Below, one piece after another: positions 4,301 through 50,218 of a stretch of 64,000 nt of DNA. Source of the DNA: Patescibacteria group bacterium (GTDB lineage Bacteria > Patescibacteriota > Microgenomatia > CAYGWK01); contig JBMORX010000005.1 of assembly GCA_049322615.1 (NCBI GenBank), forward strand, positions 395 through 64,394, read 5' to 3'. The position numbers and the translations under genes are program-made. The stretch's first letter is position 1. The number at the start of each line of letters is the position of its first letter. The notes beneath the pieces were generated by a model. That model had not been told where the DNA came from and did no database searches. It was given only the letters and a program-made list of their open reading frames with translations.

Positions 4301-5010
4301 AAATTGGCGGATTTCAAAAAGTTTCCCTTCTTGATTTTCCTGCTCACCTTTCTGCCATTGTTTTTGTCAAAGGCTGTAATTTCCGTTGCCCCTTTTGTTT
4401 TAATCGAGATTTGGTTTTAGGGAATTTGCCGACAATCTTCGAAGGCAAGATTTTTAGTTTTCTTAAAAAAAGAAAAAAGGTTTTGGATGGGGTGGTTATC
4501 ACTGGCGGAGAACCAACTCTTCAGCCGGATTTGGAAAAATTTATTAAAAAAGTTAAAAAAATTGGATACGAAGTTAAACTTGATACCAATGGTGCTCTTC
4601 CAGAAATTTTGAAAAACTTGATAAAAAAGAAAATAATTGATTATCTGGCTTTGGATTTTAAGGCGCCGCTTAACTTTTCTTATTCCCAAATTACAAATTA
4701 CAAATTACAAATTACAAATATCAAGAAATCCATTAAACTGATTTTGCAGTCTGGAATCCCTTTTGAGTTGCGGACAACCGTCGTGCCGGGGATTCATAAC
4801 AAAAAAACCCTGGTTTTGATGGCAAAACAACTTCGCCAAATTACAAATTACAAATTACAAATTACAAATTTGAAGTGGTTTTTGCAGGAATTTCAGCCAA
4901 AAACCTGCCTTGACCCTGAATTTGAAAAGATAAGGCCATACAGTAAAATAGAGATGGAAAAATTTTTAAAAGCAGTTAAAAAAATCATTCCGGCCGTTGA
5001 ACTTCGCTAG
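4297..5010 (+). CDS. nrdG: anaerobic RNR activating protein (radical SAM)
   Basis: CNFRCPFCFN (CxxxCxxC) motif; start overlaps nrdD stop (ATGA); two in-frame T-family repeat insertions. Confidence 0.85.
   Translation: MKIGGFQKVSLLDFPAHLSAIVFVKGCNFRCPFCFNRDLVLGNLPTIFEGKIFSFLKKRKKVLDGVVITGGEPTLQPDLEKFIKKVKKIGYEVKLDTNGALPEILKNLIKKKIIDYLALDFKAPLNFSYSQITNYKLQITNIKKSIKLILQSGIPFELRTTVVPGIHNKKTLVLMAKQLRQITNYKLQITNLKWFLQEFQPKTCLDPEFEKIRPYSKIEMEKFLKAVKKIIPAVELR
4688..4720. repeat. T-family repeat (aaattacaaattacaaattacaaat) inserted in frame in nrdG (encodes QITNYKLQITN)
   Basis: Second near-identical copy at 4848-4871 in the same frame. Confidence 0.6.
4848..4871. repeat. T-family repeat, second in-frame copy in nrdG
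   Basis: ccaaattacaaattacaaattacaaat, identical to copy at 4688. Confidence 0.6.
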
Positions 5011-5055
5011 AAAGCTCCTGTAAAAAGTCCGTCAGGTTTGATATAATTACCTTAT

Positions 5056-5379
5056 ATGCCGGAACTGCCCGAAAGAGAAAAAGAGAGAGGTTTTGTCGTT
5101 GAAGCGGGGAGAATTTATGAAACTCCTGCAGAAAAAGAAGGGTTATTAAAAAGAGTCGAAGAGCCAGAACTTGAAAAACCAGTTACTTACAAACGCCAGG
5201 TTTTAGTGACTTCGGCCCAGGCGCAAAAGCCAAGAATTATTCTGCCTTTAACCCAGCAAACTTATTTAAATCCCGCCAACTGGCATAAACCAATTGTCTA
5301 TGCCATTCGTTGGCTTTTAGCCTGGGCGCAGAGAATTATTAAAATGCGACCAGGGAAAGTAATGTTTGAGAAATCCTAA
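5056..5379 (+). CDS. hypothetical protein
   Basis: 107-aa ORF; no recognisable motif. Confidence 0.3.
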   Translation: MPELPEREKERGFVVEAGRIYETPAEKEGLLKRVEEPELEKPVTYKRQVLVTSAQAQKPRIILPLTQQTYLNPANWHKPIVYAIRWLLAWAQRIIKMRPGKVMFEKS

Positions 5380-5476
5380 ATTCTAAATTCGAAATTACAA
5401 ATTCAAAACGGTTTGGAATTTAAAAAATTGGAATTTAAATATTGTTTAGGATTTAGAATTTGGTGCTTAGAATTTT

Positions 5477-7822: not shown

Positions 7823-7825
7823 CGA

Positions 7826-7915
7826 AGATATTAAGATACTAGGAGACTAAGATATTAAGAGAAAAAAGGAAAATTATTGCACTTAGTATCCTAATATCTT
7901 AATCTTTTAATATCT
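7826..7915. repeat. G-family (gatattaag) palindromic element
   Basis: gatattaagatactaggagactaagatattaagag ... cttagtatcctaatatcttaatcttttaatatctt; related copies at 8326, 17531, 47363, 49836. Confidence 0.55.
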
Positions 7916-7925
7916 TTTTAAAAAG

Positions 7926-8297
7926 ATGAAAATCAATCGATTTATCGATCTTGAGGCATGGAAAGAAGCCCACAAATTGGTTCTTTTAGTCTATGAGGTT
8001 ACTGCTAAGTTCCCGAAGTCAGAACTTTACGGCTTGGTTTCTCAACTCCGTAGAGCGGCAGTTTCTATAGAATCATGTATCGCTGAAGGATTTTGTCGTT
8101 ATCACTATAAAGATCGTTTAAATTTCTATTACGATGCCAGAGGTTCGGTAGGAGAAATTCAGAGTGAGATTATTGATGCTAGGGATCTAAAGTTTATCAA
8201 CGAGGAAGATTTCAAGAAGGTTTTTGATCAAGCAGAAAAAGTGGGAGTAATTTTAGGTGGACTTATTCGAACTACTCAACGCTTGTCTTCTGGCTAA
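7926..8297 (+). CDS. four-helix-bundle protein (23S rRNA intervening-sequence protein family)
   Basis: LEAWKEAHKLVLLVYEVTAKFPK..LVSQLRRAAVSIESCIAEG..; flanked on both sides by G-family repeats. Confidence 0.8.
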   Translation: MKINRFIDLEAWKEAHKLVLLVYEVTAKFPKSELYGLVSQLRRAAVSIESCIAEGFCRYHYKDRLNFYYDARGSVGEIQSEIIDARDLKFINEEDFKKVFDQAEKVGVILGGLIRTTQRLSSG

Positions 8298-8325
8298 ATT
8301 TTTGTTATTATTCTTCCTGGAATCG

Positions 8326-8355
8326 CTTAATATCCTAATATCTTAGTCTCTTAAT
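8326..8355. repeat. G-family repeat half-copy abutting tRNA 5' end
   Basis: cttaatatcctaatatcttagtctcttaatatctt. Confidence 0.45.
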
Positions 8356-8545
8356 ATCTTTTTGGGCACGTAGCTCAATGGCAGAGCACTACTCTTATAG
8401 CAGTAAAATGGGTCGGTAACTCAGCGGTCAGAGTGCCACTCTTATAAAGTGGAAGTCGATGGTTCGAATCCATCCCGACCCACCATTTTACTGATATATC
8501 GCGCCTTGCGCGCTATAAAGCAGGGGTTCTTGGTTCGAATCCAAG
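8356..8545 (+). tRNA. interrupted tRNA-like gene: intact acceptor/D arm (8356-8380) and T arm/acceptor (8521-8545) separated by about 118 nt that contains a complete tRNA
   Basis: GGGCACG...CGTGCCC 7-bp acceptor pairing; D arm GCTC-AATGGCA-GAGC; T arm CTTGG-TTCGAAT-CCAAG; anticodon-arm candidates CTACT/CTTATA..AGCAG with one mismatch; 11-bp inverted repeat CAGTAAAATGG/CCATTTTACTG brackets the inner tRNA. Confidence 0.4.
8402..8477 (+). tRNA. tRNA-Ile (anticodon UAU), CCA encoded
   Basis: Cloverleaf: GGGTCGG/CCGACCC acceptor, ACTC/GAGT D stem, CCACT-CTTATAA-AGTGG anticodon arm (TAT at 34-36), GATGG-TTCGAAT-CCATC T arm, A73, CCA. Confidence 0.8.
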
Positions 8546-17132: not shown

Positions 17133-18192
17133 AATCAAGTGCTCATCAGGTATTAAATCAGGTGCCCATCGTCTTGTTTTAATCGATGGCAATGCCATTT
17201 TGCACCGCGCCTATCATGCCCTTCCGCCCTTAACTATCCGTTCTGGAGAATTGGTTAATGCTGTTTACGGATTTACGACCATGCTTCTTAAGGTAATTTC
17301 CGATCTAAAGCCAAAATATTTGGCGGTGGCTTTTGATACCCCAAAACCTACTTTTAGGCAGATAGAATATGTTGGTTATCAAGCCCAAAGACCGGAGATG
17401 GAGGCAGAACTTTCTTCGCAAATTAGTCGAGTTTATGAGATTCTTAAGAGTATGGGAATTCCCATTTTTGAGAAAGAGGGATTTGAGGCAGATGATGTTA
17501 TTGGGACAATCGCTCGCCAAGCGAGCGAAGAGACTAAGATATTAAGAGATAAAGATATTAAGAGAAGAAAAAGAAAAGCACCTAGTATCTTAGTATCTAA
17601 ATATCCTAATATCGAAGTCATTATCGTTACTGGTGACCGGGATATGATGCAATTGGTGGGACCAAAAATTATGGTTTATGCCCCAATTAGAGGACTATCC
17701 GAAGCCCAGTTTTTTGACGAAGAAAAAGTAGAAGAAAAAATTGGAGTTAAACCTTGGCAGATTTCAGATTTTAAAGGGTTAACTGGCGATGCCTCGGATA
17801 ATTATCCAGGAGTGCCGGGAATTGGGCCAAAAACCGCGGTTTTGCTTTTAAAAAGATTTGGGACTTTGGAGAAACTTTATAAAAATCTTTCGGAGGTTGG
17901 AAGATATTTTAATCCAAGTGTCGTTGGCAAACTTTCTCAAGGAGAAGAACTGGCGAGAATTTCTAAAAAATTGGCAACGATAGTCACCGATGTTCCTTTA
18001 AAGGTTGATTTAGAAAAATGTAAGTTTGAATTTAGTGATGAAGAAAGGCAACAAACAATTAAAAAATTAGAAGAGTTAAGATTTAAAAGCCTGGTGGAGA
18101 GGTTAAAGAAGCCGGCAACACCCGCCTTCGCCAAGGCTACGGCGGGCAGGCAGAGGGCACAGAGGGGCGGGGGACAGTTAAAGCTGGTCTAG
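17122..18192 (+). CDS. 5'-3' exonuclease (Pol I N-terminal FEN-like domain)
   Basis: LVLIDGNAILHRAYHA..., GFEADDVIGT, H3TH region GIGPKTA; contains in-frame G-family insert (17531-17612) and C-family insert at C-terminus (18111-18170). Confidence 0.75.
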   Translation: MGGKIKCSSGIKSGAHRLVLIDGNAILHRAYHALPPLTIRSGELVNAVYGFTTMLLKVISDLKPKYLAVAFDTPKPTFRQIEYVGYQAQRPEMEAELSSQISRVYEILKSMGIPIFEKEGFEADDVIGTIARQASEETKILRDKDIKRRKRKAPSILVSKYPNIEVIIVTGDRDMMQLVGPKIMVYAPIRGLSEAQFFDEEKVEEKIGVKPWQISDFKGLTGDASDNYPGVPGIGPKTAVLLLKRFGTLEKLYKNLSEVGRYFNPSVVGKLSQGEELARISKKLATIVTDVPLKVDLEKCKFEFSDEERQQTIKKLEELRFKSLVERLKKPATPAFAKATAGRQRAQRGGGQLKLV

Positions 18193-19429: not shown

Positions 19430-19453
19430 CATGAATATAAAACGAATGGGAGA

Positions 19454-19542
19454 CCTGCAACACAGAGAGCACAGAAACTAAGATAAAAGCACAGAATCTC
19501 TGCGCCTTCTACTGTCGCTCTGTGCATTTAGTGTTGCAGGGG
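19454..19542. repeat. B-family element (cctgcaacacagagagcacagaaa ... gtgttgcagggg; 10-bp terminal inverted repeats)
   Basis: Related copy in frame inside mutM at 20344-20412; shares cacagagagcacagaaa core with A family. Confidence 0.55.
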
Positions 19543-19553
19543 AAATATTCGAA

Positions 19554-20142: not shown

Positions 20143-21120
20143 ATGCCAGAGTTGCCTGAAGTAGAAACAATTAAGCGCAGTTTGCAAAAATCGATTGTTG
20201 GGAAGAAAATTACCGGGGTTCAGGTTTTGTTGGTTAAACAGTTTCAGGGCAAAAAAGAGGAGGTGATTGGTAGAGAAATTTTAGGGATAGAGAGAAGGGG
20301 CAAGGTGTTAATTGTTGCGTTGGGAAAGAAACCGGATAAGGAGCCTGCAACACAGAGAGCACAGAAAACCTCCGTGCCTTCTACTAAATTCAGTGCCTTC
20401 GGTGTTGCAGGGAAAATATTCGGGACCGAGGTGGTGGCCGTTCCAGAGGGCACAGAGAAAGTATTGCTTATTCACTTCAAACTCACCGGCCAGTTAGTCT
20501 GGGTGCCGAAAGCAGGGGAGAGAGTAACCCTGGGACATCCAATTCCTTTTGCTGGCACCGAGTTACCAGCCAAAACCACTCATGTGATTTTTGGAATCGA
20601 TGGCGGACGGTTATTCTTTAATGATTTGCGCCAATTTGGCTGGATAAAAGTTATAAGTGACTTAAGTAACTTAAGTGACTTAAGGAGATTGGGACCAGAG
20701 CCTTTTGACAAGGAATTCACGGAAGACTATCTGAAACAAATCTTTTCCAAGTCCGCAAAACCGATAAAACTGGTTTTAATGGACCAGGAAAAAATTGCCG
20801 GAATAGGGAATATTTACGCTAATGATAGTCTGTGGGAGGCAGGAATAAGGCCGGATAAGCCGGCCAAGCAATTGAGCGATTTAGCCATTGAGCAATTAAG
20901 AAAAGCGATAATTAGGGTTTTAGAGGATGGGTTAAAATACGGAGGGTCTTCGGCGGCAGACGAAGCATATATTCGACCGGATGCCACTCCAGGTTTATAC
21001 CAAGAACACTTCCGAGTCTATCAGCGGGATGATCAACCCTGCCTTCGGTGTGGAACTAGAATACAGAGAGTAGAGCTAGGTGGAAGAGGCACATTTTATT
21101 GCCCCAAGTGTCAAAGGTAA
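20143..21120 (+). CDS. mutM: formamidopyrimidine-DNA glycosylase (Fpg/MutM)
   Basis: N-terminal MPELPEVETI (catalytic Pro2/Glu3), C-terminal zinc finger CLRCG...CPKCQ; lengthened by in-frame B-family insert. Confidence 0.85.
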   Translation: MPELPEVETIKRSLQKSIVGKKITGVQVLLVKQFQGKKEEVIGREILGIERRGKVLIVALGKKPDKEPATQRAQKTSVPSTKFSAFGVAGKIFGTEVVAVPEGTEKVLLIHFKLTGQLVWVPKAGERVTLGHPIPFAGTELPAKTTHVIFGIDGGRLFFNDLRQFGWIKVISDLSNLSDLRRLGPEPFDKEFTEDYLKQIFSKSAKPIKLVLMDQEKIAGIGNIYANDSLWEAGIRPDKPAKQLSDLAIEQLRKAIIRVLEDGLKYGGSSAADEAYIRPDATPGLYQEHFRVYQRDDQPCLRCGTRIQRVELGGRGTFYCPKCQR

Positions 21121-21228: not shown

Positions 21229-22293
21229 ATGCTTCTTAAGCAACTGAGACTTTCTGATTTTCGAAACTATTCTCAAAAAGAATTTAGTTTTTCGGAGGGG
21301 ACAACTTTAATCGTTGGTCCCAACACTTCGGGGAAGACCAATCTTTTAGAAGGAATTTATTTACTAGCCACTGGTAAATCTTTTCGGGCCGGACTGGAAA
21401 GTGAAATGATTGCCTATGACCAAGATTTATCAAGAGTTAAAGGTAGGATTTTAAACAAAGGAAGGACTGATTTGGAAATAATTTTAACCAGAGGCGAGGT
21501 TTTGGGCGAGAAGGTGGCTAAGAAAAAATACCAGGTTAATGGGATTTCCAAGCGAGCGGTGGATTTTGTGGGAAAATTGCGAGCCGTCTATTTTGGGCCA
21601 GAAGATTTGGATTTGGTCACTAACTCGCCATCGCTTCGCCGAAAATATCTGGATTCGGTTTTATCCCAGGTGGACAGAGAATATAGTCGCTCGGCTCTTT
21701 CTTATGAGAAAGGATTACGCCAGAGAAACAGGCTTCTGGAGCGGATAAGAGATGAAGGTGCTTCTCGCTCTCAACTTTTATTTTGGAACCAACTTTTGAT
21801 TAAAAACGGAGAATATATTACCAGGAAAAGGGAGGAGTTTATTGAGTTTATCAACAGCGTTCAGTATTCAGTGTTCAGCTTTAAGCTGGAATATGACAAA
21901 AGCATCATATCTCCGGCTCGACTTGAGGATTATGCTGAAGAAGAGGTGGCGGCGGGGGTAACTTTAGTCGGTCCTCATCGGGACGATTTTACCTTCACAC
22001 ACCCGGTGTGTGATAGGTTGACACATCGGGATCTTTCAGCCTATGGCTCAAGGGGAGAACAGAGACTTTCAATTTTATGGTTAAAACTAGCTGAACTTGA
22101 ATTCATAAGCGAAAAAGTTGGTGAGCGACCAATTCTTCTTTTAGATGATATTTTTTCCGAACTTGACAAAAAACACCGCAAACTGGTTTTAGAGATCATT
22201 CCCTCCCAACAAACAATAATTACGACCACCGATTTAGATTTGGTGGAAAAAGAATACCAAAAACAAAAAGAGGTGGTAAAATTAGGTCAATGA
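21229..22293 (+). CDS. recF: DNA replication and repair protein RecF
   Basis: Walker A GPNTSGKTNLLE; contains in-frame copy of the 17-bp palindrome (THPVCDRLTHRD). Confidence 0.85.
   Translation: MLLKQLRLSDFRNYSQKEFSFSEGTTLIVGPNTSGKTNLLEGIYLLATGKSFRAGLESEMIAYDQDLSRVKGRILNKGRTDLEIILTRGEVLGEKVAKKKYQVNGISKRAVDFVGKLRAVYFGPEDLDLVTNSPSLRRKYLDSVLSQVDREYSRSALSYEKGLRQRNRLLERIRDEGASRSQLLFWNQLLIKNGEYITRKREEFIEFINSVQYSVFSFKLEYDKSIISPARLEDYAEEEVAAGVTLVGPHRDDFTFTHPVCDRLTHRDLSAYGSRGEQRLSILWLKLAELEFISEKVGERPILLLDDIFSELDKKHRKLVLEIIPSQQTIITTTDLDLVEKEYQKQKEVVKLGQ
21996..22012. repeat. J-family 17-bp palindrome cacacacccggtgtgtg (in frame inside recF)
   Basis: 8+1+8 perfect palindrome; near-copies at 23678, 23759, 48303. 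Confidence 0.6.
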
Positions 22294-25107: not shown

Positions 25108-25262
25108 ATTAAAAGGGGCAGTGCAATTCCTAATTTTCTTCTTCTTGTTATTTTCCGCAGAATTTGCGATAATTAAATAAGTAATTAGTAAATAGTAATT
25201 TGTAATTTGGACTAGACGTTTTTCTCCTAATTACTAATTACCAATTACGAATTACTAGATTA

Positions 25263-25413: not shown

Positions 25414-26547
25414 GTGTATCAACCAAAATTTACAATTACCAACGATATTCTTAAGAATATAGGCATCGTGGAAGCTGCCAAAGAAGTGATTGATAACGCT
25501 CCTTTGGTCCCGGCTTGGGAGAAGAAGTTTCGCGAAGAGGCGATGGTGCGGACGGTTCACTACGGCACTCATCTTGAGGGAAATGAGCTTTCTTTTTCTG
25601 AAGCAGAAAAAGTTTTGGAAGGACAAAAAATTGTTGCCAAAGACAGAGATATTCAAGAAGTTATAAATTATCGTAAGGTGATTAAGTATCTAGATGAATT
25701 GGTTCCGAATGAAGAACCTGCAACACCCGCCTCCGCCAAGGCTACGGCGGGCAGGCAGAAAGCACAGAAGGAAGCAGAGAGCATAGAGAAACCATATACT
25801 GAAGCGATGCTTAAAAAAATCCACTTTTTAACTTGTTATCGGATTATTCCCAAAGACCAGGCAGGTAAATTCCGCCAAACCCAGGTGGTTTTAAGAAATT
25901 CTCAAACTGGAGAAGTTGCTTTCAAACCACCACCTTCCGCTCAAGTTCCTGCTCTTGTTTCCGATTTCCTAGGCTGGTTGAATTCGGAAAGTGGAAAAAG
26001 CATTCATCCAGTGATGCGGGCGGGGATTACTCATTACGCTTTGGCGGCAATTCATCCTTTTGTTGAGGGAAATGGTCGGACCGCCCGGGCTTTTGCCACC
26101 TTGATTTTGTTCTCCGAAGGCTACGACATTAAAAAATTTTTCTCTTTAGAGGAATATTTTGACAAAGATGCTCCTTCTTATTATTCTGCCCTGATGCAAG
26201 TTTCAAACCAGAGCGAAAATCTTTCTCAAAGAGACCTAACGCCCTGGATTGAATATTTCGCCAAAGCCCTTGCCTTAGAGTTGACAAGAATAAAAGAGAG
26301 AGTGAGAAAACTTTCTTTAGACTTAAAAATTAAGGGAAGGCTGGGGCGGCAGATTGCTTTATCAGAACGACAAATGAAACTAGTTGAATACCTGGAGGAA
26401 TATAAAGAAATTACCGTTCCCCAGGCTCGCCAGATTCTTCAAATGGTTTCCGATGATACCATCCTTCGCGACTTGAAAGACCTGGTTAAAAAGAAGATAA
26501 TCAAAAAAGAGGGGAAAACTAAGGCAGCAAAATACGTTATGAAATAG
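25414..26547 (+). CDS. Fic family protein (AMPylation-type)
   Basis: HPFVEGNGRTARAF Fic motif; C-terminal winged helix; in-frame C-family insert at 25727-25790. Confidence 0.8.
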   Translation: MYQPKFTITNDILKNIGIVEAAKEVIDNAPLVPAWEKKFREEAMVRTVHYGTHLEGNELSFSEAEKVLEGQKIVAKDRDIQEVINYRKVIKYLDELVPNEEPATPASAKATAGRQKAQKEAESIEKPYTEAMLKKIHFLTCYRIIPKDQAGKFRQTQVVLRNSQTGEVAFKPPPSAQVPALVSDFLGWLNSESGKSIHPVMRAGITHYALAAIHPFVEGNGRTARAFATLILFSEGYDIKKFFSLEEYFDKDAPSYYSALMQVSNQSENLSQRDLTPWIEYFAKALALELTRIKERVRKLSLDLKIKGRLGRQIALSERQMKLVEYLEEYKEITVPQARQILQMVSDDTILRDLKDLVKKKIIKKEGKTKAAKYVMK

Positions 26548-32880: not shown

Positions 32881-34299
32881 ATGCAGATCACTGCTGACTT
32901 GCACTTCCATAGTAAGTACTCACGCGCGGTTTCCCAACAAATGGTTTTGCCGGAAATCGCCAAATGGGCCAACTTTAAGGGAATTGATTTAGTCACCACC
33001 GCTGATTTCACTCACCCCTTATGGCTTAGGGAGATTAAGGCAAATCTTGAGGAGAAAAGGGAGGGAATTTATAGAGTTAAAGGTCAAGAAAAACCCTTAT
33101 TTTTATTGACAACGGAAATCTCAAGCATTTATACCCAAAATGGAAAACTTAGGCGAATTCACAATCTGGTCTTTGCCCCAAATTTAGAAGAAGCGGAAAA
33201 AATTGAGACAGAGTTGGCCAGGAGAGGGAATGTCATGTCTGATGGTCGGCCGATTTTTGGGCTTTCCGCTCGGGATATTGCGGATTTGATTTTAAACCTT
33301 TCCCCGGAAGCGTTGATTGTCCCAGCGCATTGCTGGACTCCCCATTTCGCTTTGTATGGTTCAGAATCTGGATTTGATTCTATCGAAGAATGTTTCGGTG
33401 ACATGGCGAAAAATATTTATGCAGTGGAGACCGGTTTGTCAAGTAGCCCTGAAATGAACTGGAGAGTAGGGGAACTAGATAGACGGTCAATTATTTCCTG
33501 CTCCGATGCCCATTCGGGGGCAAAATTGGGAAGAGAAGCAACAGTGTTTGAGATAGAAGATATCAAGAAATTAAGATATGAAGATATTAGGGAAGCGATA
33601 AGAAGTGGGGGTGGGAAGTGGGAAATGGGTCGGGAAGTGGGGGTGGGAAGTGAGGAGAAAAGAGGAAAACCCCACATCTCATACACAATTGAATTCTATC
33701 CCGAGGAGGGGAAATACCATTATACTGGGCATCGAAATTGTAATGTTCGCCAATCGCCCGAAGAAACCCGCCGGCTGGGCGAGGTGTGCCCTGTATGTGG
33801 TAAACATTTGACCGTTGGAGTGATGCATCGCGTAGAAGAGCTGGCAACGCGCGAAATTTCCGCCTTCGCTAAAGCTTCGGCGGACAAGAAAAATGAAAAA
33901 CCTGCCTCGCCGACAGGCGGGTTAAAAATTAAAAATGACGAAAAAGAGGTGAAGTGGATTGGATACGAGAATAGACCTCCTTATGTGATGTTAGTCCCGC
34001 TTTTGGAGATTTTAGCCGAGTCACTAAATACCATTATTAGTAGTCAAAAGGTAATTTCCGAGTACAGAAAGTTAACAGAGAATTTTAGGGGAGAATTTGG
34101 GGTTTTACTAAACACTGATATTTCTGAAATTGCCAAAATTTCCGGTCTAAGGATAGCCGAGGGAATAAAAAAAGTCCGCTCTGGTGATATTGTCGTTGAC
34201 CCGGGTTACGACGGCGTCTTTGGCACCGTCAAAATCTGGCCCGAGGGAAAAGATGTTGCCAAAGAGGAAGAAGAAAAAGAACAACTAGCATTATTCTAA
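32881..34299 (+). CDS. PHP-domain phosphoesterase with C-terminal zinc ribbon, endonuclease Q-like
   Basis: ADLHFHSKYSRA PHP metal site; CPVCGKHLTVGVMHRVEEL; in-frame gtgggaag repeat (KWEMGREVGVGSEE). Confidence 0.55.
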   Translation: MQITADLHFHSKYSRAVSQQMVLPEIAKWANFKGIDLVTTADFTHPLWLREIKANLEEKREGIYRVKGQEKPLFLLTTEISSIYTQNGKLRRIHNLVFAPNLEEAEKIETELARRGNVMSDGRPIFGLSARDIADLILNLSPEALIVPAHCWTPHFALYGSESGFDSIEECFGDMAKNIYAVETGLSSSPEMNWRVGELDRRSIISCSDAHSGAKLGREATVFEIEDIKKLRYEDIREAIRSGGGKWEMGREVGVGSEEKRGKPHISYTIEFYPEEGKYHYTGHRNCNVRQSPEETRRLGEVCPVCGKHLTVGVMHRVEELATREISAFAKASADKKNEKPASPTGGLKIKNDEKEVKWIGYENRPPYVMLVPLLEILAESLNTIISSQKVISEYRKLTENFRGEFGVLLNTDISEIAKISGLRIAEGIKKVRSGDIVVDPGYDGVFGTVKIWPEGKDVAKEEEEKEQLALF

Positions 34300-34308: not shown

Positions 34309-34329
34309 TGACAGGGTCCGTCCCTGTCA
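34309..34329. repeat. H-family hairpin tgacagggtccgtccctgtca
   Basis: 8-bp stem, 5-nt loop; copies at 40799 (in frame in mpg), 50780, 51841. Confidence 0.6.
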
Positions 34330-34389
34330 GGGAACGCGACCAGGAAACGAGGCCTGGGTGGATTTCCTACTTCTGTTCTAGGCTAAGGT

Positions 34390-36324: not shown

Positions 36325-36951
36325 ATGATCTTCAAAAATCGCCAAGAGGCAGGAAAGAAACTAGCGACTAAGCTACAAAGCCACAAAGCAACCAAGAATT
36401 TACTGGTGTTAGCGATTCCGAGGGGGGGAGTGGTGGTGGGGAAAATTCTTGCCCAAGCGCTGAATTGTCCTTTGGATGTTTTGATTACCAGAAAGGTTGG
36501 CGCTCCGGGAAATCCGGAATTGGCAATTGGCGCGGTTGGACCAGGGGGAATAAGAATAATAGACTGGGATTTGGTAGAAAGAGTGGGAGCAGACAATAAT
36601 TATATTAAAAAGCAAATATCAAATATCAAAAAGGAAATCGAAGAGAAAGAAAAAAAATTTAGGATAGGTAAGAAACCGCTTGAGGTTAAAGATAAAATTG
36701 TTATCTTAACCGATGACGGGATTGCCACTGGAGCAACAACTGAAGCCGCCATTGCCTGGTTAAGAACAAAAAAAGCAAAAAAGATAATTTTGGCCGTTCC
36801 GGTGGCGCCGCCAGAGGTGGTTGAGAAATTAAAGCCCTTAGTTGATGAACTAATGGTTCTTGATCAGCCAGAATTTTTCGCCGCTGTTGGTCAATTTTAT
36901 CAAGAATTTGAACAAGTAACGGACGACAAAGTCGTCGAGTTACTTAAGTAA
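36325..36951 (+). CDS. phosphoribosyltransferase family protein
   Basis: PRPP-binding motif VILTDDGIATGATT; in-frame K-family insert (KKQISNIKKEIEE). Confidence 0.7.
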   Translation: MIFKNRQEAGKKLATKLQSHKATKNLLVLAIPRGGVVVGKILAQALNCPLDVLITRKVGAPGNPELAIGAVGPGGIRIIDWDLVERVGADNNYIKKQISNIKKEIEEKEKKFRIGKKPLEVKDKIVILTDDGIATGATTEAAIAWLRTKKAKKIILAVPVAPPEVVEKLKPLVDELMVLDQPEFFAAVGQFYQEFEQVTDDKVVELLK

Positions 36952-37754: not shown

Positions 37755-38389
37755 AATTAATAGTGGGACTCGGTAATCCTGGGAAAAAATACGAAAAAAG
37801 CCGGCATAATATTGGTTTTATGGTCGTGGATGAACTCGCGCAGAAGTGGGAAGTGGGAAGGGTGAAGTGGGAAGAAGACAAGAAATCGAATACATTAATC
37901 ATCAATCATCAGCCATTGGCCATCCTGGTTAAGCCACAAACAATGATGAACGCTTCGGGTTTTGCCGTCAAATCCCTAATTACTAATTACAAATTACCAA
38001 TTACTAATCTCTGGGTAATCCATGATGATTTGGATTTACCTTTAGGGAAAATAAAAATTGTCAAAGGTCGGGGTTCAGCCGGACATTATGGGGTTGGGTC
38101 AATAATTCGGGAACTTGGGACAGCTGATTTTGTTAGGTTTAGGCTTGGAATAGGTCGTCCGGCGGGGAAGCCCCCCTTCGCCGAGGCTTCGGGGGGTAAA
38201 TGGGAAGTGGGAGGGGGGAGGTTAGTGGATGAAAATGTGATGCATCGGGAGGTTGAAAGATATGTTTTGGAAGGATTTGGAGGCAAGGAGGCAGTTGAGG
38301 CAAAAAAAACCATCAAAAAAACGGTCGAAGCAATCGAATTGGCCTTGGAAAAGGGAGTAGAGGAGGCAATGAATCGTTATAATAAATAA
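37751..38389 (+). CDS. pth: peptidyl-tRNA hydrolase
   Basis: MKLIVGLGNPGKKYEKSRHNIGF...; lengthened by in-frame T-family (ITNYKLPITN) and gtgggaag-type inserts. Confidence 0.85.
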   Translation: MKLIVGLGNPGKKYEKSRHNIGFMVVDELAQKWEVGRVKWEEDKKSNTLIINHQPLAILVKPQTMMNASGFAVKSLITNYKLPITNLWVIHDDLDLPLGKIKIVKGRGSAGHYGVGSIIRELGTADFVRFRLGIGRPAGKPPFAEASGGKWEVGGGRLVDENVMHREVERYVLEGFGGKEAVEAKKTIKKTVEAIELALEKGVEEAMNRYNK

Positions 38390-38420
38390 GCAAATAAGCA
38401 AATAAGCAAATGTCAAATAA

Positions 38421-38828
38421 ATGACAAATAAGCAAATAAGCAAAGCTTGCTGCTTCGCAGTAAACAAATTAAAAAATAGAGATATTCACGAGAGAATTTA
38501 CAATTTTGTAATTGCGGTTCTAAGACTTCTTGCGGATCTGCCCAAAAATAATTTCAACCTAATTATTATTGATCAGTGCGGAAGGGCGGTAACTTCCGTT
38601 GGTGCTAATGATCAAGAAGCCGATGCCTGTGAAAGCAGGAGAGATTTTATCGCTAAATATTCTTTGGTGAAGAAAGAAATTAAAGAGGTCAATTATTGGC
38701 TGAGGTTAATTTTTGATTTAAATAAGGATTTCCAAACAAGGGTGGCTGTAATTCAGCAAGAAGGAAAAGAGATTCTTCTAATTGTCAGTTCGATCATCAA
38801 GAATACTAAGAAGTCTAAAAAAATTTGA
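38421..38828 (+). CDS. four-helix-bundle protein (rRNA IVS protein family)
   Basis: About 60% identical to 41271-41651 copy (IHERI..F.I.V..L...LPKN..NL.II.Q...VTS.GANDQEAD). Confidence 0.75.
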   Translation: MTNKQISKACCFAVNKLKNRDIHERIYNFVIAVLRLLADLPKNNFNLIIIDQCGRAVTSVGANDQEADACESRRDFIAKYSLVKKEIKEVNYWLRLIFDLNKDFQTRVAVIQQEGKEILLIVSSIIKNTKKSKKI

Positions 38829-39001
38829 CATTTGATTATTTGGAATTTGTTATTGATTTGTAATATTTGAAATTTGTAGTATTTGCTTATTTGATTATTG
38901 AATGAATGGAAAAATTTTGGGAATTTCATTTTCGGAAAGAATGGTTGTTACACCTCGGTGATTACACCTCGGAGGTGTAAGGAGGAAGGTGTAAGGCTAG
39001 A

Positions 39002-40331: not shown

Positions 40332-40928
40332 ATGAGATTAAAAAGGGATTTTTTTGCAAAAGAGACAATTTGGGTAGCCAAGAATTTACTGGGAAAATAT
40401 CTAGTAAGAAGGTTAAGGGGAAAGAAACAATTGGTTGGGAAAATTGTCGAGACCGAGGCTTATATTGGACCTGATGATAAAGCCTCCCACGCCGCTTTTA
40501 GAAAAACAAAAAGATGCGCCCCAATGTATGATAAGCCAGGGACGGCCTATGTTTATTTTATTTACGGGATGTATTGGATGCTCAATATTGTTACCGAAGA
40601 GAAGGGAAAACCGTGCGCGGTCCTGGTTCGGGCAATCGAACCAATAGAAAATGAAAAAATAAAAATGAAAAATGACATATTAAAATTTAAAAAGTTAGGA
40701 AGCGGGCCTGGGCTGTTGTGTAAGTGGCTGGCGATAGACGGTTCTTTTAATGGCGAGGATTTGGTTAAAAGCCAAAGACTTTGGCTAGAGGAGAAGGGTG
40801 ACAGGGTCCGACCCTGTCAGATTGTGGCGACTAAAAGAATTGGAGTAGAATACGCTGGTCCTTGGAAAGATAAGCCCTGGAGATTTTATCTAAAGAAAAA
40901 TCCATATGTCTCAAGGAAAGGTGTTTGA
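40332..40928 (+). CDS. DNA-3-methyladenine glycosylase (Mpg/AAG family)
   Basis: GKIVETEAYIGPDDKASHA...; in-frame K-family and H-family inserts. Confidence 0.75.
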   Translation: MRLKRDFFAKETIWVAKNLLGKYLVRRLRGKKQLVGKIVETEAYIGPDDKASHAAFRKTKRCAPMYDKPGTAYVYFIYGMYWMLNIVTEEKGKPCAVLVRAIEPIENEKIKMKNDILKFKKLGSGPGLLCKWLAIDGSFNGEDLVKSQRLWLEEKGDRVRPCQIVATKRIGVEYAGPWKDKPWRFYLKKNPYVSRKGV

Positions 40929-41247
40929 AAAAATTTATGAGGCAGTTAAAGGAATTCCTAAAGGGAAAGTGGCGACCTATGGGCAGATTGTAAATCAAAT
41001 TAAAAATGAAAAATTAAAAATGAAAAATGACAAAGAAAAATTTAAAATTACTCCGCGAGTAGTAGGATGGGTACTCCATCAAAACCCTGATTCTGAAAAT
41101 ATTCCTTGCCATCGGGTGGTGGATAGAAGTGGAAGATTGGCGTCTGGGTTTGCTTTCGGCGGAGCAAAAGAGCAGAAGAGAAAACTCCTGAAAGAAGGAG
41201 TAAAATTTAAAGATAGCATACATGTAGACCTTAATAAATACCAATAA
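40906..41247 (+). CDS. methylated-DNA--protein-cysteine methyltransferase DNA-binding/active-site domain (MGMT family)
   Basis: Active-site IPCHRVV; in-frame K-family insert NEKLKMKNDKEKFKIT nearly identical to that in mpg. Confidence 0.65.
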   Translation: MSQGKVFEKIYEAVKGIPKGKVATYGQIVNQIKNEKLKMKNDKEKFKITPRVVGWVLHQNPDSENIPCHRVVDRSGRLASGFAFGGAKEQKRKLLKEGVKFKDSIHVDLNKYQ

Positions 41248-41270
41248 ATACCAATAAATACCAATGACCA

Positions 41271-41651
41271 ATGATCAATAAGAATAAGAAAAAATACGAT
41301 ATTCATGAGAGAATTTTTAGATTTATAATCCGAGTAATAAACCTCACAAAGCAGTTACCGAAAAACCAGCAAAACTTAGTTATAATCAGTCAAATCCTGG
41401 ATTCGGTAACCTCTATGGGAGCAAATGATCAGGAAGCGGATGGAGCCTTAACTCGTAGAGACTTCATTCATTGTTATACTGTTGTTAGAAAAGAGGGAAA
41501 AGAAACTAACTTTTGGCTAAGATTAATTCAAGCAATAAATCCCGGATTTGCATCAAGAATGGTGGATTTGATTAAAGAAGGCGAAGAAATTGTCGCCATT
41601 GTGAGCCAGATTATCGCTAACGCAAGAAAAAAGTCTCTAAAGAAAAAATAA
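41271..41651 (+). CDS. four-helix-bundle protein (rRNA IVS protein family)
   Basis: See 38421. Confidence 0.75.
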   Translation: MINKNKKKYDIHERIFRFIIRVINLTKQLPKNQQNLVIISQILDSVTSMGANDQEADGALTRRDFIHCYTVVRKEGKETNFWLRLIQAINPGFASRMVDLIKEGEEIVAIVSQIIANARKKSLKKK

Positions 41652-41694
41652 TTGAGAATTGGTACTTATTTGAAATTTGTAGTATTGGTAATTA

Positions 41695-44989: not shown

Positions 44990-47365
44990 AAAAAGAAACC
45001 TTCTTACTTAAAGGAATGCATTGTGTTTCCTGCGCGGTGACAATTGAGAATGCTTTAAAAAAAGTACCAGGCGTTTTCTCGGCCGTGGTTAATTTTGCTG
45101 CAGAGAAGGCGACAGTAGAATTCAGCGATCAAGCTATTGAGCAATTAAGATATCAAGAATTATTAGAGAAGATTAAAAAGGCGGTAAAAAACGCAGGCTA
45201 TGAATTGATAACGGATGAGAAGGATGATCACAGAAGGCACAGAAAAAAAGATGAGGGCACAGAAAAAGAAATGGAACATCACGACCACGCGGCAATGATG
45301 AGGGAAGAAGAATTAATAGACTTGAAAAGAAAAATTGCTGTTGGCGCGGTGATCTCCGCTTTAATTCTAGCTATTACCCATCGTTGGTTACTTTTCTTAT
45401 CCACACTTTCAGACCAAACAACCTTTTTCCTTTTGTTTTTCTTAGCTACTCCGGTCCAAGTCTGGTTAGGAAAAAGTTTTTATCAAGGGACGTTTCGGGG
45501 TTTAAAAAATCTTCGGGCTAACATGGATACCCTCGTTGCTCTAGGAACAACCATCGCCTATCTTTATAGCGTTGGTCTAACTTTTATTCCTTCTTATTTT
45601 GCTATGGCAGGGGTCAAGCTTCATATTTATTATGATACCGCCGTTTTTCTTTTGACCATCATTACTTTTGGCCAGTTTTTAGAAAAAAGAGCCCGAGGCC
45701 AAGCAGGAGAAGCGATAAAGAAGTTGATGGGGTTGGCACCCAAAACCGCTCGCGTCCTTCGACAAGCTCAGGATAAATTAGTAGAGATAGATATTCCTAT
45801 CGATCAAGTTCTGGTGGGTGATATTTTAATCGTTCGTCCGGGAGAGAGAATTCCGGTTGATGGAATTGTCGTAGAGGGTGCTTCGGCGGTGGATGAATCA
45901 ATGGTTACGGGTGAAAGTATGCCAGTTGAGAAGAAAAAGGATGACCAGGTAATTGGGGCGACGATTAATAAATCTGGTTCTTTTAAGTTCAAAGCCACAA
46001 AAGTTGGTAAAGAGACGGTTTTAGCCCAAATTATCAAGCTTGTTGAGGAGGCTCAGGGTTCAAAAGCGCCAATCCAACGACTAGCGGATACAGTCTCTGC
46101 TTATTTTGTCCCCGCAGTGATTTTAATAGCGGCTTTAACCTTTTTGATTTGGTTTTTTGTCGGACCTACTCCTGCTTTAACCTTTGCCATTATTAATGCC
46201 ATTGCTGTTTTGATTATTGCTTGCCCTTGTGCCTTGGGTTTGGCGACGCCAACGGCGATTATGGTGGGGACGGGTAAAGGAGCAGAAAAAGGGATTTTGA
46301 TTAAAGATGCCACCAGCCTTGAGATTGCTCATAAGATAAAAACGATTGTTTTGGATAAAACAGGGACGTTGACCAAGGGGGAACCTGGGGTAACGGACAT
46401 AATAATATCAAATATCAAAGATCAAATATCAAAAATACAAATTAAAAATCAAAAAGATTTACTAAGAATTGCCGCCTCGGCCGAGTTGCGGAGTGAGCAT
46501 CCTTTGGGGCAGGCGGTGGTTAAGAAAGCCAGGGAGCAAGGACTGAAATTGGTTGAACCAACAAACTTCCAGGCAATTACCGGGAAAGGGGTAAAGGCGA
46601 AATTAGTAATTAGGAATTTTAAAGGGAAATCGTGTTTTGATGAAAGAATTTAAGGTGGAGATACCAAAAGCAGTGGAAGAAAGAATGAAGAGATTAGAAA
46701 ATGAAGGCAAAACAGTTATGCTCTTAGCCGTAACCCAATTACCAATTACTAATTACCAATTACTAGGCATTATTGCCGTCGCTGATACTCTTAAGGGAAA
46801 TTCGAAGGAAGCAGTCCAAGCCTTGCAAAAGATGGGGCTTGAGGTTTGGATGATAACTGGGGACAATCCCCGAACGGCTCGGGCGATCGGAAAAATGGTA
46901 GGAATTGATAAAGACCACATTATGGCGGAAGTGGCCCCTCAAGAAAAGGAGAGGAAAGTGAGAGAGCTTAAAACCCAAGGTGCCGTATCTGGTGAACCTC
47001 TAAGGTTGGTGAGTATGGTGGGTGATGGGATAAATGACGCCCCGGCTTTGGCGGCTTCAGATGTTGGGATTGCCATGGGAGCGGGGACGGATGTGGCGAT
47101 GGAGTCAGCCGGGATAACATTGATGAAATCAGATTTGCTGGATTTGGTGGCGGCGATTAGACTTTCCAAAGCAACCCTTGCGATTATCAAGCAAAATCTT
47201 TTCTGGGCTTTCTTTTATAACACGGTTTTAATTCCGGTTGCGGCTGGGGTTCTTTATCCATTTTTTGGGATTCTCTTAAATCCTATTTTTGCTTCCGGAG
47301 CAATGGCGTTTTCTTCAGTTTCCGTGGTTTTAAATTCCTTGAGACTGAGAAGAATAAGAATTTGA
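44986..47365 (+). pseudogene. copA: copper-translocating P-type ATPase CopA, split into two ORFs by a +1 frameshift in a T4 run near 46624-46637
   Basis: HMA MHCVSCA, CPC, DKTGTLT in 44986-46653; GDGINDAPAL and last TMs in 46637-47365 (TTG-started ORF); deleting one T in gtgttttgatg restores a continuous frame. Confidence 0.7.
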
Positions 47366-47408
47366 TATTAAGATATTAAGATATTAAGATATTAAGATAT
47401 TAAGAGAA
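47363..47408. repeat. G-family tandem (gatattaag x5)
   Basis: atattaagatattaagatattaagatattaagatattaagag. Confidence 0.6.
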
Positions 47409-48318: not shown

Positions 48319-48884
48319 ACAAATGCAAAAATATGAAAGCGACCAAAATGCTTCAAGATGAACATCGGGTAATTGAAAGATTTCTGCATGTGTTGGCAAA
48401 ACTGGCAGATAGAGCAGAAAAAGGCAGGATTGAAGAAGAAAAATTTAGCCAAGTTTTGGATTTTATTCAGACTTTTGCCGACCGCTGTCATCATGGTAAA
48501 GAAGAAGATGTTTTGTATCCCCTCCTTGAAAAAAAGGGAATTCCAAAAGTTGGTGGGCCAATCGGGATGATGTTATTTGAACACGAAGAGGGAAGAGGTT
48601 ATGTGGCTGGTTTGACCAAGGCAATCGAGGGATACAGGAGCGGCAAGAACACAAAAGAAGAGATTATTGAAAATGCCCGCGGTTATATTGGAATTTTGGA
48701 AAATCATATTCCCAAAGAAGACAATATTTTGTACCCCATGGGAGAGCAGGTTTTAAGCCCTCAAGACGACAGCAATCTGATTTCGGAGTTTGAAAAAATT
48801 GAAAAAGAGAGGATTGTGCCAGGGAAGCACGAAGAATATCATCGATTAATTGAGCGATTAGAGAAGGAGATTAAAAATGATTGA
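48315..48884 (+). CDS. hemerythrin-like domain protein (true start may be a downstream ATG)
   Basis: H...HHGKEE...H..E.. cation-binding pattern. Confidence 0.5.
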
Positions 48885-49203
48885 GCTGACTGATAAAACT
48901 TTTGAGATTGAAGTTTTGAAATCAAATCTTCCGGTTTTGGTTGATTTTTGGGCGCAGTGGTGCGGCCCATGCTTGATGGCCGCTCCGGTCATCGAAGAAT
49001 TAGCCAAAGAATACGAGGGAAAGATTAAGGTGGGAAAATTAAATGTTGACGAAAATCCAAAAATAGCCGAGAAATATGGCATCTTAAGTATTCCGACGGT
49101 GGTGGTCTTCAGAAATGGAGAGGAAGTAAAAAGACAGGTCGGATTTCCTGGCAGGGAAGGTTACCTTAAATTGATCCAGGAAATTTTAAATTTAAAATTT
49201 TAA
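48877..49203 (+). CDS. trxA: thioredoxin
   Basis: WCGPC active site. Confidence 0.85.
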
Positions 49204-49240
49204 ATGTATATTTTCAATTTACTATTTACAATTTACTATA

Positions 49241-50218
49241 ATGTATGATCTGATCATTATCGGTTTAGGTCCGGCAGGCTTGACTTCCTCAATTTATGCT
49301 TCGCGTTTTCGGATAAAGCATTTGCTAATTGGAAGCTCGCTGGGAGGAGCAATGGCTTTGGCTTTTTCTGTGGAAAATTACCCAGGATTTGAGAAGATTT
49401 CCGGTTTGGAATTGGCTAAAAAAATGGAAAGCCAAGCCAAAAATCTAGGGGCGGAGATTTTGGTTGATGAGGTGGTTAAAATCAAGGGAGGTCCTTCTTT
49501 TACGGTAGAAACTGCTTCAGGGAGAAAATTTCAAGCCAAAAATCTAATTGTGGCGACTGGGACAAAGCGCCGGCAGTTAGGAATTCCTGGTGAGACAGAA
49601 TATCTTGGTCGAGGGGTCTCTTATTGTTCAACCTGCGATGCCCCCTTTTTTAAGGATAAGGTGGTGGCAGTCATTGGCGGGTCAAACGCGGCCGCCATGG
49701 GAGCGGTTCATCTTTCCTCTTTTGCCAAAAAGGTTTATTTGCTCTATCGGGGAAAGCCTTTGCGCGCCGAGCCTGCTTGGGTGGAGAAGGTAGAAAAGAC
49801 ACCCAGGATTACGGTGATTTACGAAACGAATATTAAAAAGATATTAGGATATAAAGATATTAAGATATTAAGCGAAGAAGAAAAAGCACCTAGTATCGAT
49901 CGAGTGGCGGCGGTGGAATTGGATAAACCATACAAGGGGAAAAGGCTTTTGCCTGTGGATGGGGTTTTTGTGGAAATTGGGGGTGTTCCTGGAGCAGAGT
50001 TAGTCAAGCCTTTGGGAGTGGAACTTAATGAGAAGGGATTTATCAAGGTAGGAGCGGATATGGCGACCAATATTGCCGGAATTTTTGCCGCTGGAGATGT
50101 GGCTAATGCCTCTGGTGAGCTTCAGCAGATAGTGACGGCTGTCTCCGAAGGAGCAATTGCCGCCGCCTCGGTTTACCAAAATCTGGGACTTGACAAAGAC
50201 ATTAAGTGTACGTTATAA
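49241..50218 (+). CDS. trxB: thioredoxin-disulfide reductase
   Basis: FAD GxGxxG, CSTCD redox centre; in-frame G-family insert 49836-49898 (KKILGYKDIKILSEEEKAPSID). Confidence 0.85.
   Translation: MYDLIIIGLGPAGLTSSIYASRFRIKHLLIGSSLGGAMALAFSVENYPGFEKISGLELAKKMESQAKNLGAEILVDEVVKIKGGPSFTVETASGRKFQAKNLIVATGTKRRQLGIPGETEYLGRGVSYCSTCDAPFFKDKVVAVIGGSNAAAMGAVHLSSFAKKVYLLYRGKPLRAEPAWVEKVEKTPRITVIYETNIKKILGYKDIKILSEEEKAPSIDRVAAVELDKPYKGKRLLPVDGVFVEIGGVPGAELVKPLGVELNEKGFIKVGADMATNIAGIFAAGDVANASGELQQIVTAVSEGAIAAASVYQNLGLDKDIKCTL

Follow-up and report, generated by a model that had tools for sequence, protein, structure and literature searches.

How did the same short DNA repeats come to lie, nearly always in an open frame, inside one conserved housekeeping gene after another? 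This question is raised by a 64,000-nt stretch of the genome of a Patescibacteria group bacterium (GTDB lineage Bacteria; Patescibacteriota; Microgenomatia; CAYGWK01), taken from NCBI GenBank assembly GCA_049322615.1, contig JBMORX010000005.1, positions 395 to 64,394 of the forward strand, and referred to below as the window. An original prediction, made from the sequence alone, had proposed that several families of small repeats were inserted here in frame and add peptide loops to their host proteins, as described for Rickettsia palindromic elements (RPEs). We compared 30 intragenic copies with orthologues or solved structures. Sixteen of them are lineage-specific insertions (+4 to about +58 aa) and one forms a C-terminal tail, but the remaining 13 occupy an ancestral position at unchanged protein length, which is the outcome that the prediction itself had named as speaking against it. 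The proposed addition of residues is therefore found at 16 sites and not at 13.

At least ten miniature repeat families, with elements of 17-100 nt, were found in the window genome in two builds. The first consists of arms in which a unit of 7 or 8 nt is repeated 4-5 times in tandem, giving a length of ~30-40 nt (CNAATTA, AAATNNN types, GAAGTGG, AAGATATT, AGCAATTG, AAATAGC and AAATAAGC). These arms occur singly, as inverted pairs that form long hairpins, or as terminal inverted arms of cassettes with a gene for a 23S-IVP (intervening-sequence protein), a four-helix-bundle product. The second build comprises hairpins that are short and rich in GC (families B, C, H, J and Q). Array length is nearly constant at ~30-36 nt (4-5 units) regardless of the unit, and the units of an array resemble one another more than they resemble those of other arrays. 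Copies are present in ~20 of roughly 45 genes examined and are abundant between genes, too.

Arrays were located by Tandem Repeats Finder (TRF) and repeat finding, with 100 codon shuffles of the 57 kb of coding DNA as control. At a strict threshold, the coding DNA contained 11 period-7 arrays (0.01 expected) and three period-8 arrays (0 expected), and not a single array with a period of 4-6 or 10-12. A looser threshold resulted in 40 arrays in the window (6.25 per 10 kb), 24 of them coding and 16 in the 7.1 kb of intergenic DNA. Array density is ~5-fold higher in intergenic than in coding DNA, but the latter is still hugely enriched.

Most of the predicted family assignments were recovered. 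The T family is present twice in nrdG (100% matches in TRF) and in pth and copA; the K family in the genes of the Ca-ATPase, PRTase, CopA, MPG and MGMT; the G family as a full hairpin in the 5'-3' exonuclease and as a half copy in trxB; the H hairpin in mpg, the J palindrome in recF, and GAAGTGG-type tracts in the ligase, PHP-like and pth genes. Each of these copies is part of a translated open frame. A common B/C family held for the exonuclease tail and fic, but the mutM copy is a related C hairpin that reads EPATQRAQKTSVPSTKFSAFGVAG and not PATPAFAKATAGRQ. A proposed ctgat..cagcg motif was not accepted as a family for its weakness, being represented by two identical intergenic copies, one palindrome in a GT2 protein and one match with three mismatches. 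The Q family (GTCCTTCGACAAGCTCAGGATAAA, read VLRQAQDK) had been overlooked; it is identical over 24 nt in ligase and copA, with a variant in a DUF72 gene (42081-42101). Other pairs of copies are similarly close: the two nrdG sites share 40 nt at 95%, the K arrays of MPG and MGMT 50 nt at 88%, the octamer arrays of mutM and copA 32 nt at 88%, and the B elements of exonuclease and fic 55 nt at 91%. Two further array loci were seen. A perfect octamer array (ACAAAAAA, x3.8) lies at 43229-43258 at the 5' end of a CsoR-like open reading frame (ORF) and may precede its true start codon, and a heptamer family, (GAAGACN)n, forms an in-frame inverted pair in a 1575-aa GT2 protein with an N-terminal transposase-type helix-turn-helix domain (56810-56927, 62509-62566) and recurs at the gene's 3' end (61951-62520).

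Folding energies compared with shuffled sequences were low for the exonuclease G hairpin (z -4.84), an inverted pair of T arrays (z -3.8), the recF J palindrome (z -3.4) and the mutM C hairpin (z -2.69); for arrays that are not paired, and for individual copies of B, Q and H, folding was not significant. Rfam scans of the window returned only tRNAs and one chance-level match, no rRNA and no match to a repeat family. No relevant account of in-frame or heptanucleotide repeats in Patescibacteria, or of peptide motifs such as LRQAQDK and FAKATADK, turned up in searches of the literature.

The constant reading frame of each family had been taken as a sign of selection. As 7 and 8 are coprime to 3, three units sample all codon phases and any frame gives the same cyclic peptide; because of this arithmetic, a constant frame in 7-/8-mer arrays is no evidence for selection. 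The T arrays start in phases 0, 0, 0 and 2. The opposite orientation of arrays is barred by its stop codons, and all reverse T copies observed are either intergenic or placed at the stop codon of a gene (42443-42467) or at a frameshift in copA. Stop-avoiding variants of the T unit do exist (in the unit with positions 2-4 in frame, the variable base is C or A, never T; pth, copA), but we discarded them as an independent test, since they are a logical consequence of a location inside an ORF. The claim that the repeats leave the frame intact holds for every copy but one: copA is split by a ~1-nt frameshift just past its reverse T copy (ORFs 44986-46653 and 46637-47365). A genuine pseudogene, a variant produced by slippage and an error of the metagenome-assembled genome (MAG) are possible explanations.

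Insertion and equal-length replacement in host genes

As references for the 30 copies we used solved structures, 29 orthologues each for Pth and NrdG, and the syntenic loci of three related genomes (L001, L002 and the pair L003/L004), which were reached via Pth orthologues and of which ~20 kb each were covered. The insertions are distributed over the exonuclease (G), MutM (C), RecF, Fic, the ligase N-domain, the PHP-like protein (two), Pth, MGMT, CopA (five), TrxB and the second site of NrdG (lengths in Table 1), and the C-terminal tail is the B element of the exonuclease. The 13 copies of unchanged length are found in Pth (two), PRTase, MPG (two), the Ca-ATPase (two), the C-proximal part of the ligase (two), MutM (two), NrdG (site 1) and the PHP-like protein.

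Several of these equal-length segments could be aligned to known structures without a gap, such as LITNYKLPITNL in Pth with LLTYYNIDITDL in PDB 4qt4 and KQLSDLAIEQLRK in MutM with ASLSSKEIERLHE in 1l1t. A further Pth segment, QKWEVGRVKWEE, is at a native position, the PHP-like segment EIEDIKKLRYEDIR is common to L001 and L002, and relatives have segments just as long as the copies in PRTase, MPG (both), the Ca-ATPase (both) and the C-proximal part of the ligase (two). Surface loops had been expected for the inserts. In the AlphaFold model of Pth, this is supported by the true insert, which is disordered (predicted local distance difference test, pLDDT <50), but not by the equal-length segments, which lie at a helix end, in a loop and in a strand with a pLDDT of 89-97. 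Both arrays of the NrdG model span a helix end and a loop (pLDDT 64-81); at site 2, distant orthologues have a different array-type peptide, ITENCKLKIENC. To judge from these alignments, the equal-length copies point to a process that copies over resident DNA rather than to simple insertion.

Codon alignments revealed that such sites differ between relatives. In the window, the first Pth site consists of (GAAGTGG)n; L002 instead carries (AAATTTC)n, and L003 plain sequence. The second is (CNAATTA)n in the window and L001, octameric (AGCAATTK)n in L002 and a partial copy in L003. The sites in PRTase and the Ca-ATPase likewise carry different arrays among relatives at fixed length, and relatives differ in the unit sequence and not in the number of units. 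The clearest case is the comparison of L003 with L004, which are 98.6% identical over 15.5 kb. In 30-nt windows, only four internal patches fell to 70% identity or less, all of them in the Ca-ATPase gene: two are equal-length array swaps, and two are small indels of GC-rich hairpins (21 and 12 nt) within heptamer arrays. These polymorphic hairpins are CCCGCCTGCCGGACGGGCAGG (L003, 3336-3356) and TCCGCCAGCTGGCGGACA (L004, 3509-3526), the second of which has the stem of the B core. The three arrays in the L003 gene have the common unit AAATCCA.

The opposite pattern was observed as well. Among ~60 pairwise gene comparisons, the run of identical DNA ranked as the longest (56 nt; expectation ~1e-7) covers the T array of Pth in the window and L001, including Pth-specific flanks, in a gene that is otherwise only 67% identical. 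The third-ranked run (55 nt) covers the PRTase array of L001 and L002, while the second, a 57-nt stretch of Fic common to the window and L002, does not correspond to an array. Arrays are therefore either far more different or far more alike than their host genes, which, as far as alignments can tell, is the signature of a cassette-like replacement.

The B hairpin and the 23S-IVP cassettes

The B core, (t/c)CCGCC-TTCGCyAArGCTwC-GGCGG(a/g), is located at 18122-18150 and 25727-25755 in the window. Scanning species-representative genomes with TYCGCYAARGCTWCGGCGGRCARG resulted in at least 120 loci, compared with ~0.3 expected by chance (an arithmetic estimate). The matches listed come from many classes of Patescibacteria and from Acidobacteriota, Verrucomicrobia, Bradyrhizobium, Planctomycetota, Elusimicrobia and Bacteroidota, and 32 viral contigs contain the motif as well. 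On either side of the core, the copies have unrelated sequence. In the copies listed, the base in front of CCGCC covaries with the base behind GGCGG (T..A 69, C..G 44, mixed 12; Fisher 1e-20), also within GC strata, and all four variable positions are in predicted loops. The covariation could reflect two inherited subfamilies instead of repeated compensation. Nine of the 125 copies listed adjoin 7-8-mer arrays, compared with 1.6% of random positions. Some copies abut tRNA genes and some are in tandem.

Since B is not a tandem repeat, its frame is informative. Among the matches listed, 43 copies are in genomes below 50% GC, 26 of them inside ORFs of 150 codons or more. The FAKAT frame (peptide forms PAFAKATAG and SAFAKATADK) is used in 15 of the 26, two give LRQGYGGQ and nine are read on the other strand. 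In addition, one Pth orthologue has RLRPGYGGQAG at the same hot spot that carries an insertion in the window. The FAKAT frame is a bias, not a rule, and the predicted constancy of frame is not supported for this family either. We regard the B hairpin as a candidate mobile or structural element of very small size; the literature searched does not describe it.

The second unusual element is the 23S-IVP cassette. All five IVP genes that we found (four in the window and one in L001 at 5067-5526) are placed between inverted arrays, whose arms measure 28-52 nt, show 72-95% complementarity and are separated by 370-475 nt. The unit, of 7-10 nt, is specific to the cassette (AAGATATT, AAATAGC, AAATAAGC or AATAAATACC), and cassettes are present or absent among syntenic relatives. 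The L001 cassette lies between the PRTase and Pth genes, which overlap in L002 and L003; comparing its junctions with these two empty sites, no target-site duplication was evident. Arrays around the IVP genes and the empty hairpins represent terminal inverted repeats, as in MITEs (miniature transposable elements with inverted repeats), and the G hairpin of the exonuclease looks like an empty IVP cassette. One of the IVPs has a weak similarity to bAvd.

IVP ORFs are known from rRNA insertions of bacteria of the candidate phyla radiation (CPR) (PMC11270868). The cassettes resemble those intervening sequences of 23S rRNA that carry an IVP (PF05635) gene, in that inverted flanks pair to a long stem whose loop contains the gene. 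In contrast to these, they are located between protein-coding genes and not in rRNA, and their stems are tandem 7-10-mers that differ from cassette to cassette. This provides the uncharacterised PF05635 family with a concrete genomic context.

Origin of the repeats

Our preferred explanation, to which we assign a probability of roughly 0.55, is that these are selfish miniature repeats which spread and are homogenised by short-patch conversion and are then filtered by translation. Copying would be non-reciprocal and short, either by ectopic gene conversion or by template switching between dispersed copies, possibly with allelic patches from other lineages, and would begin where the target already resembles the repeat. 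Possible examples of such likeness are the near-palindrome of L003 at the MPG H site, the native ...AAGATATTAGGA that precedes the TrxB insert, and the array-like GTAAAATTATTAGAAAAATGA of L002 and L003 at the location of the L001 IVP cassette. If both junctions are in register, native codons would be overwritten at equal length; otherwise residues would be added. Translation would then let copies survive that have a stop-free orientation, a frame-keeping length and a structurally tolerant site, and recurrent hot spots and the apparent constancy of frame would follow from this filter.

Several points weigh against this explanation. Pfam scans identified no reverse transcriptase, REP-associated tyrosine transposase (RAYT), IS200-type transposase or other moving or copying enzyme in the window, and the ~20 kb covered per relative contained no donor for the swapped patches. 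Target-site duplications were not observed, although no rigorous test was made. With the Pth-specific flanks that it includes, the 56-nt Pth island is less suggestive of ectopic conversion within one genome than of an imported allele or of DNA-level selection, as far as the alignment allows a judgement. Equal-length replacement could also be explained by concerted evolution of old arrays in place, which the PRTase arrays of all four genomes fit. Finally, the comparison spans four related loci and 64 kb of the source genome.

The alternative closest to the original prediction is that each intragenic copy is a transpositional insertion of an RPE- or MITE-like element that adds a loop, with in-frame copies kept by selection. 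The 16 lineage-specific insertions, the hairpin folds of G, C and J, the presence or absence of IVP cassettes with inverted arms among relatives and the small hairpin indels between 98.6%-identical genomes are all in agreement with it. We nevertheless consider it unlikely as a general explanation, since it is already contradicted for the 13 copies without a change in length, some of them in confidently folded parts of the Pth model, and by the equal-length array swaps between near-identical genomes; moreover, the window contains no transposase and no target-site duplication was seen. RPEs are small palindromic repeats of ~150 bp (about 100-150 bp) (PMC10969869). Like RPEs, the repeats form several families of small elements, palindromic in part, that occur between genes and in frame in unrelated housekeeping genes, with a recurrent peptide per family and true insertions in loops or disordered segments. 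Unlike RPEs, they are only 17-100 nt long, many are tandem 7-/8-mers, about half overwrite native residues, and the host is a CPR bacterium. The predicted likeness to RPEs is thus supported in part. With MITEs and REPINs (inverted pairs of repetitive extragenic palindromic sequences) they have in common that they are non-autonomous, hairpin-forming and repeated, with some copies in frame with host genes; they differ in that no parent insertion sequence, RAYT or target-site duplication was seen and in that the arms themselves are tandem micro-repeats.

Evolution as microsatellites in place is a second unlikely possibility. Here, A-rich and weakly constrained coding DNA would drift to a 7- or 8-nt periodicity and be homogenised locally by slippage or templated misalignment, with no transfer between loci. 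This would account for arrays that stay at the same protein site in several genomes with different units (PRTase, Ca-ATPase, Pth), for the similarity of units within an array and for the frequently conserved length. It does not explain near-identical copies of 24-55 nt in unrelated genes, patches that are ~30% divergent against a background of 1.4%, or GC-rich hairpins that are not tandem, and slippage would vary the copy number, which is nearly constant at 4-5 units. Phase variation by simple-sequence contingency loci was rejected on similar grounds: the number of units is almost always 4-5 and in frame, and the lone frameshift is the one beside the copA repeat.

We regard it as rather improbable that the repeats are functional DNA or RNA elements under selection (hairpins acting as terminators or RNase III targets, arrays bound by proteins such as the IVPs, or sequences like uptake signals that bias transformation), with the intragenic copies as by-products. 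The B hairpin is conserved at the nucleotide level across phyla, with a covarying closing pair and four variable positions in predicted loops; arrays are found at many gene boundaries and around every IVP gene, and the identity islands cover synonymous sites and unique flanks. However, at least ten unrelated families in one genome are difficult to reconcile with a single recognition system, relatives have an unrelated array or none at the same site, no Rfam match was obtained, and the covariation could mirror two inherited subfamilies. The uptake-signal sequences of Pasteurellaceae and the DNA uptake sequences of Neisseriaceae are short motifs that build up in genes at unchanged length, form inverted pairs between genes and are common to relatives; they spread by recombination and not by transposition, with one motif per species. 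By analogy, the repeats seem comparable in their in-gene motifs at unchanged length, their intergenic inverted pairs and their sharing among relatives, but they are tandem and belong to many unrelated families, for which reason uptake was retained only as a minor variant. A diversity-generating retroelement, raised by the Avd-like IVP genes, was provisionally rejected, as the window has no reverse transcriptase and the differences between swapped arrays are not adenine-specific.

An assembly or sequencing artefact, suggested by the MAG source and the copA frameshift beside a repeat, is practically excluded, because these families recur in independent JGI and NCBI assemblies, one of which matches the window even in an identical array at one Pth site, and the frame is kept in all copies but the one in copA.

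Among known systems, a similar architecture is that of cyanobacteria, for which Elhai et al. (2008, Genome Res 18:1484) reportedly described heptameric arrays of short tandemly repeated repetitive sequences (STRRs) with small dispersed repeats (SDRs), hairpins of ~20-30 nt, embedded in them. Tandem heptanucleotide arrays are likewise dispersed over the window, small hairpins are embedded in heptamers (the L003/L004 indels; the B core enriched beside arrays), and mobility is apparent without a recognisable transposase. To our knowledge, neither equal-length replacement nor IVP cassettes have been described for SDRs. The STRR/SDR system is treated in passages of PMC3116915 and PMC5861425, the latter of which reports SDRs as restricted to Nostocaceae. 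The elements studied here differ in their occurrence in Patescibacteria (for the B core, in many phyla) and in being frequent inside conserved genes. Their architecture thus resembles STRR/SDR and part of their behaviour that of RPEs, an analogy drawn by description and not by sequence. We could not find a description of three features: equal-length overwriting of codons, IVP cassettes with arms of tandem repeats, and a 30-nt hairpin shared across phyla.

A broader and, in our view, doubtful extension would be a templated short-patch process in Patescibacteria, and via the B hairpin in many phyla, that writes cassettes of ~30-35 nt over resident DNA including coding sequence. Lineages may exchange such cassettes, and a part may be played by the Avd-like IVP proteins, which are encoded between the same arrays. 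If this were true, the ~30-nt SAFAKATADK hairpin would be among the smallest and most widely spread mobile or functional elements known. If repeats overwrite codons of essential genes at equal length, part of the divergence and low-complexity content of CPR proteins would be due to a drive at the DNA level and not to evolution at the protein level. For a group with a large share of bacterial diversity, this would have consequences for gene calling, structure prediction, phylogeny and the alignment of orthologues, and the hot spots would provide a natural map of sites in conserved enzymes that tolerate change.

Features of the window

The window has ~41% GC, and its genes are nearly all on the + strand. 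Those named by Pfam are nrdD, nrdG, a TraG-like ATPase, TrpRS, FtsH with an intein, the 5'-3' exonuclease, MutM, RecF, Fic, an ATP-dependent DNA ligase, the Ca-ATPase, a PHP-like gene, PRTase, Pth, MPG, MGMT, the split CopA, TrxB, four 23S-IVP genes and two PDDEXK_3 genes. Table 1 lists the repeats.

Table 1. Repeat elements of the window and their comparison with relatives and structures
Feature	Position	Strand	Observation
T array CAAATTA x4.7, nrdG site 1	4687..4719	+	reads QITNYKLQITN; supplants orthologue consensus AKAIGKKEFDP, -1 aa
T array CAAATTA x4.9, nrdG site 2	4837..4870	+	+4 aa vs most orthologues
IVP cassette 1	7825..8360	+	G octamer array (AAGATATT)n, small hairpin, IVP gene 7926-8297, inverted G array; arms 52 nt, 77% complementary
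Array within TrpRS	13216-13281		array detected; outside the copies compared with orthologues
Full G hairpin (array/loop/inverted array), 5'-3' exonuclease	17528..17613	+	in frame; true insertion, ~27 aa
B element (CCGCCTTCGCCAAGGCTACGGCGGGCAGG core), exonuclease C-terminal tail	18112..18166	+	read PATPAFAKATAGRQ
Array within GT1	19311-19346		array detected; outside the copies compared with orthologues
Intergenic C hairpin (CCTGCAACAC...GTGTTGCAGG)	19439..19545	+	immediately upstream of a PDDEXK_3 gene
C hairpin, MutM	20329..20412	+	in an 83-aa region matching 25 aa of PDB 1l1t; true insertion, about +58 aa
9-mer array (TAAGTGACT)n, MutM	20654..20684	+	native position; 2 aa shorter than 1l1t
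Octamer array (AGCAATTG type), MutM	20867..20901	+	reads KQLSDLAIEQLR; gap-free vs 1l1t, no insertion
J palindrome CACACACCCGGTGTGTG, RecF	21996..22012	+	+6 aa vs L002
Intergenic empty hairpin of two inverted T arrays	25176..25255	+	folding as given in the text
B element, Fic	25717..25771	+	within a +27 aa insertion vs L002
IVP cassette 2	26538..27012	+	(AAATAGC)n array, IVP gene 26587-26967, inverted array; arms 43 nt, 79%
GC-rich insertion, ligase N-domain	27520..27597	+	+24 aa; probable diverged B-like copy in another frame (PSRRREASLWRS, ...SLWRS)
Q element GTCCTTCGACAAGCTCAGGATAAA (VLRQAQDK), ligase	28015..28038	+	+1 aa vs L002
(GTGRGAA)n array, ligase	28789..28818	+	reads RSEKWEVGS; equal length vs L002 RGDKVAVKE
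Two K-type heptamer arrays, Ca-ATPase	30547-30579, 30645-30688	+	lengths as in L003/L004, whose units there differ
Three elements, PHP-like gene	33557..33904	+	G-like octamer array (ancestral, common to L001/L002); GAAGTGG array, +17 aa; B-like copy, +17-20 aa
Intergenic H hairpin	34309..34331	+	identical copies 50780-50802, 51841-51863; one in L002
K array, PRTase	36602..36630	+	equal length in 3/3 relatives, which have (AAATTGN)n there
(GAAGTGG)n array, Pth	37843..37874	+	native position; L002 (AAATTTC)n, L003 plain sequence
T array, Pth	37976..38008	+	reads LITNYKLPITN; gap-free vs PDB 4qt4; L002 has an octamer array
Insertion hot spot, Pth	38170..38235	+	PPFAEAS (+8 aa), then GKWEVGGG; disordered in model
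IVP cassette 3	38384..38899	+	(AAATAAGC)n array, IVP gene 38421-38828, inverted arrays; arms 20-31 nt, up to 95%
K array, MPG	40643..40693	+	length as in L003 (-1 aa); shorter than the matching human AAG loop
H hairpin, MPG	40799..40825	+	native position; L003 has near-palindrome GAAAGGGTTGCACCCTGTCAGAT
K array, MGMT	40997..41048	+	true +14 aa insertion; MPG copy (88% identical) ~350 nt upstream
IVP cassette 4	41233..41694	+	(AATAAATACC)n array, IVP gene 41271-41651, inverted array
Octamer array, CopA HMA domain	45119..45150	+	88% identical to MutM copy; +7 aa vs PDB 3j09
Q element, CopA	45754..45777	+	identical to ligase copy; +4 aa vs 3j09
K array, CopA	46404..46455	+	+10 aa vs 3j09
Reverse-oriented T copy (AAATTAGTAATTAGG), CopA	46599..46630 (T match 46599-46620)	+	+4 aa; frameshift directly 3'
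T array, CopA	46735..46765	+	reads QLPITNYQLL; +6 aa vs 3j09
Perfect intergenic G array (GATATTAA x5.2)	47364..47405	+	stop codons in all frames
G array and loop (half copy), TrxB	49838..49892	+	+14 aa vs L002/L003; at this site, L001 carries another insert, of 16 aa

Three further observations concern other parts of the window. The intein of FtsH (gene 13497-16703; Intein_splicing and LAGLIDADG_3 domains, aa 373-768) is located within the AAA+ module. A tRNA-Ile(TAT) at 8410-8485 apparently has one half of a further tRNA-like sequence on either side (the first, GGGCACGTAGCTCAATGG..., at 8364; the second, ...GGTTCGAATCCAAGCGTGCCCACC, with its end at 8555), and in this region (8364-8555) ARAGORN and Rfam call the inner tRNA only. 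Past this tRNA cluster, a 74-nt stretch (8556-8629) is repeated in direct orientation with 89% identity at 9899-9972, at the 3' end of a tyrosine integrase gene (9898-10818, - strand), which suggests a small integrated element or the remnant of an integrase gene.

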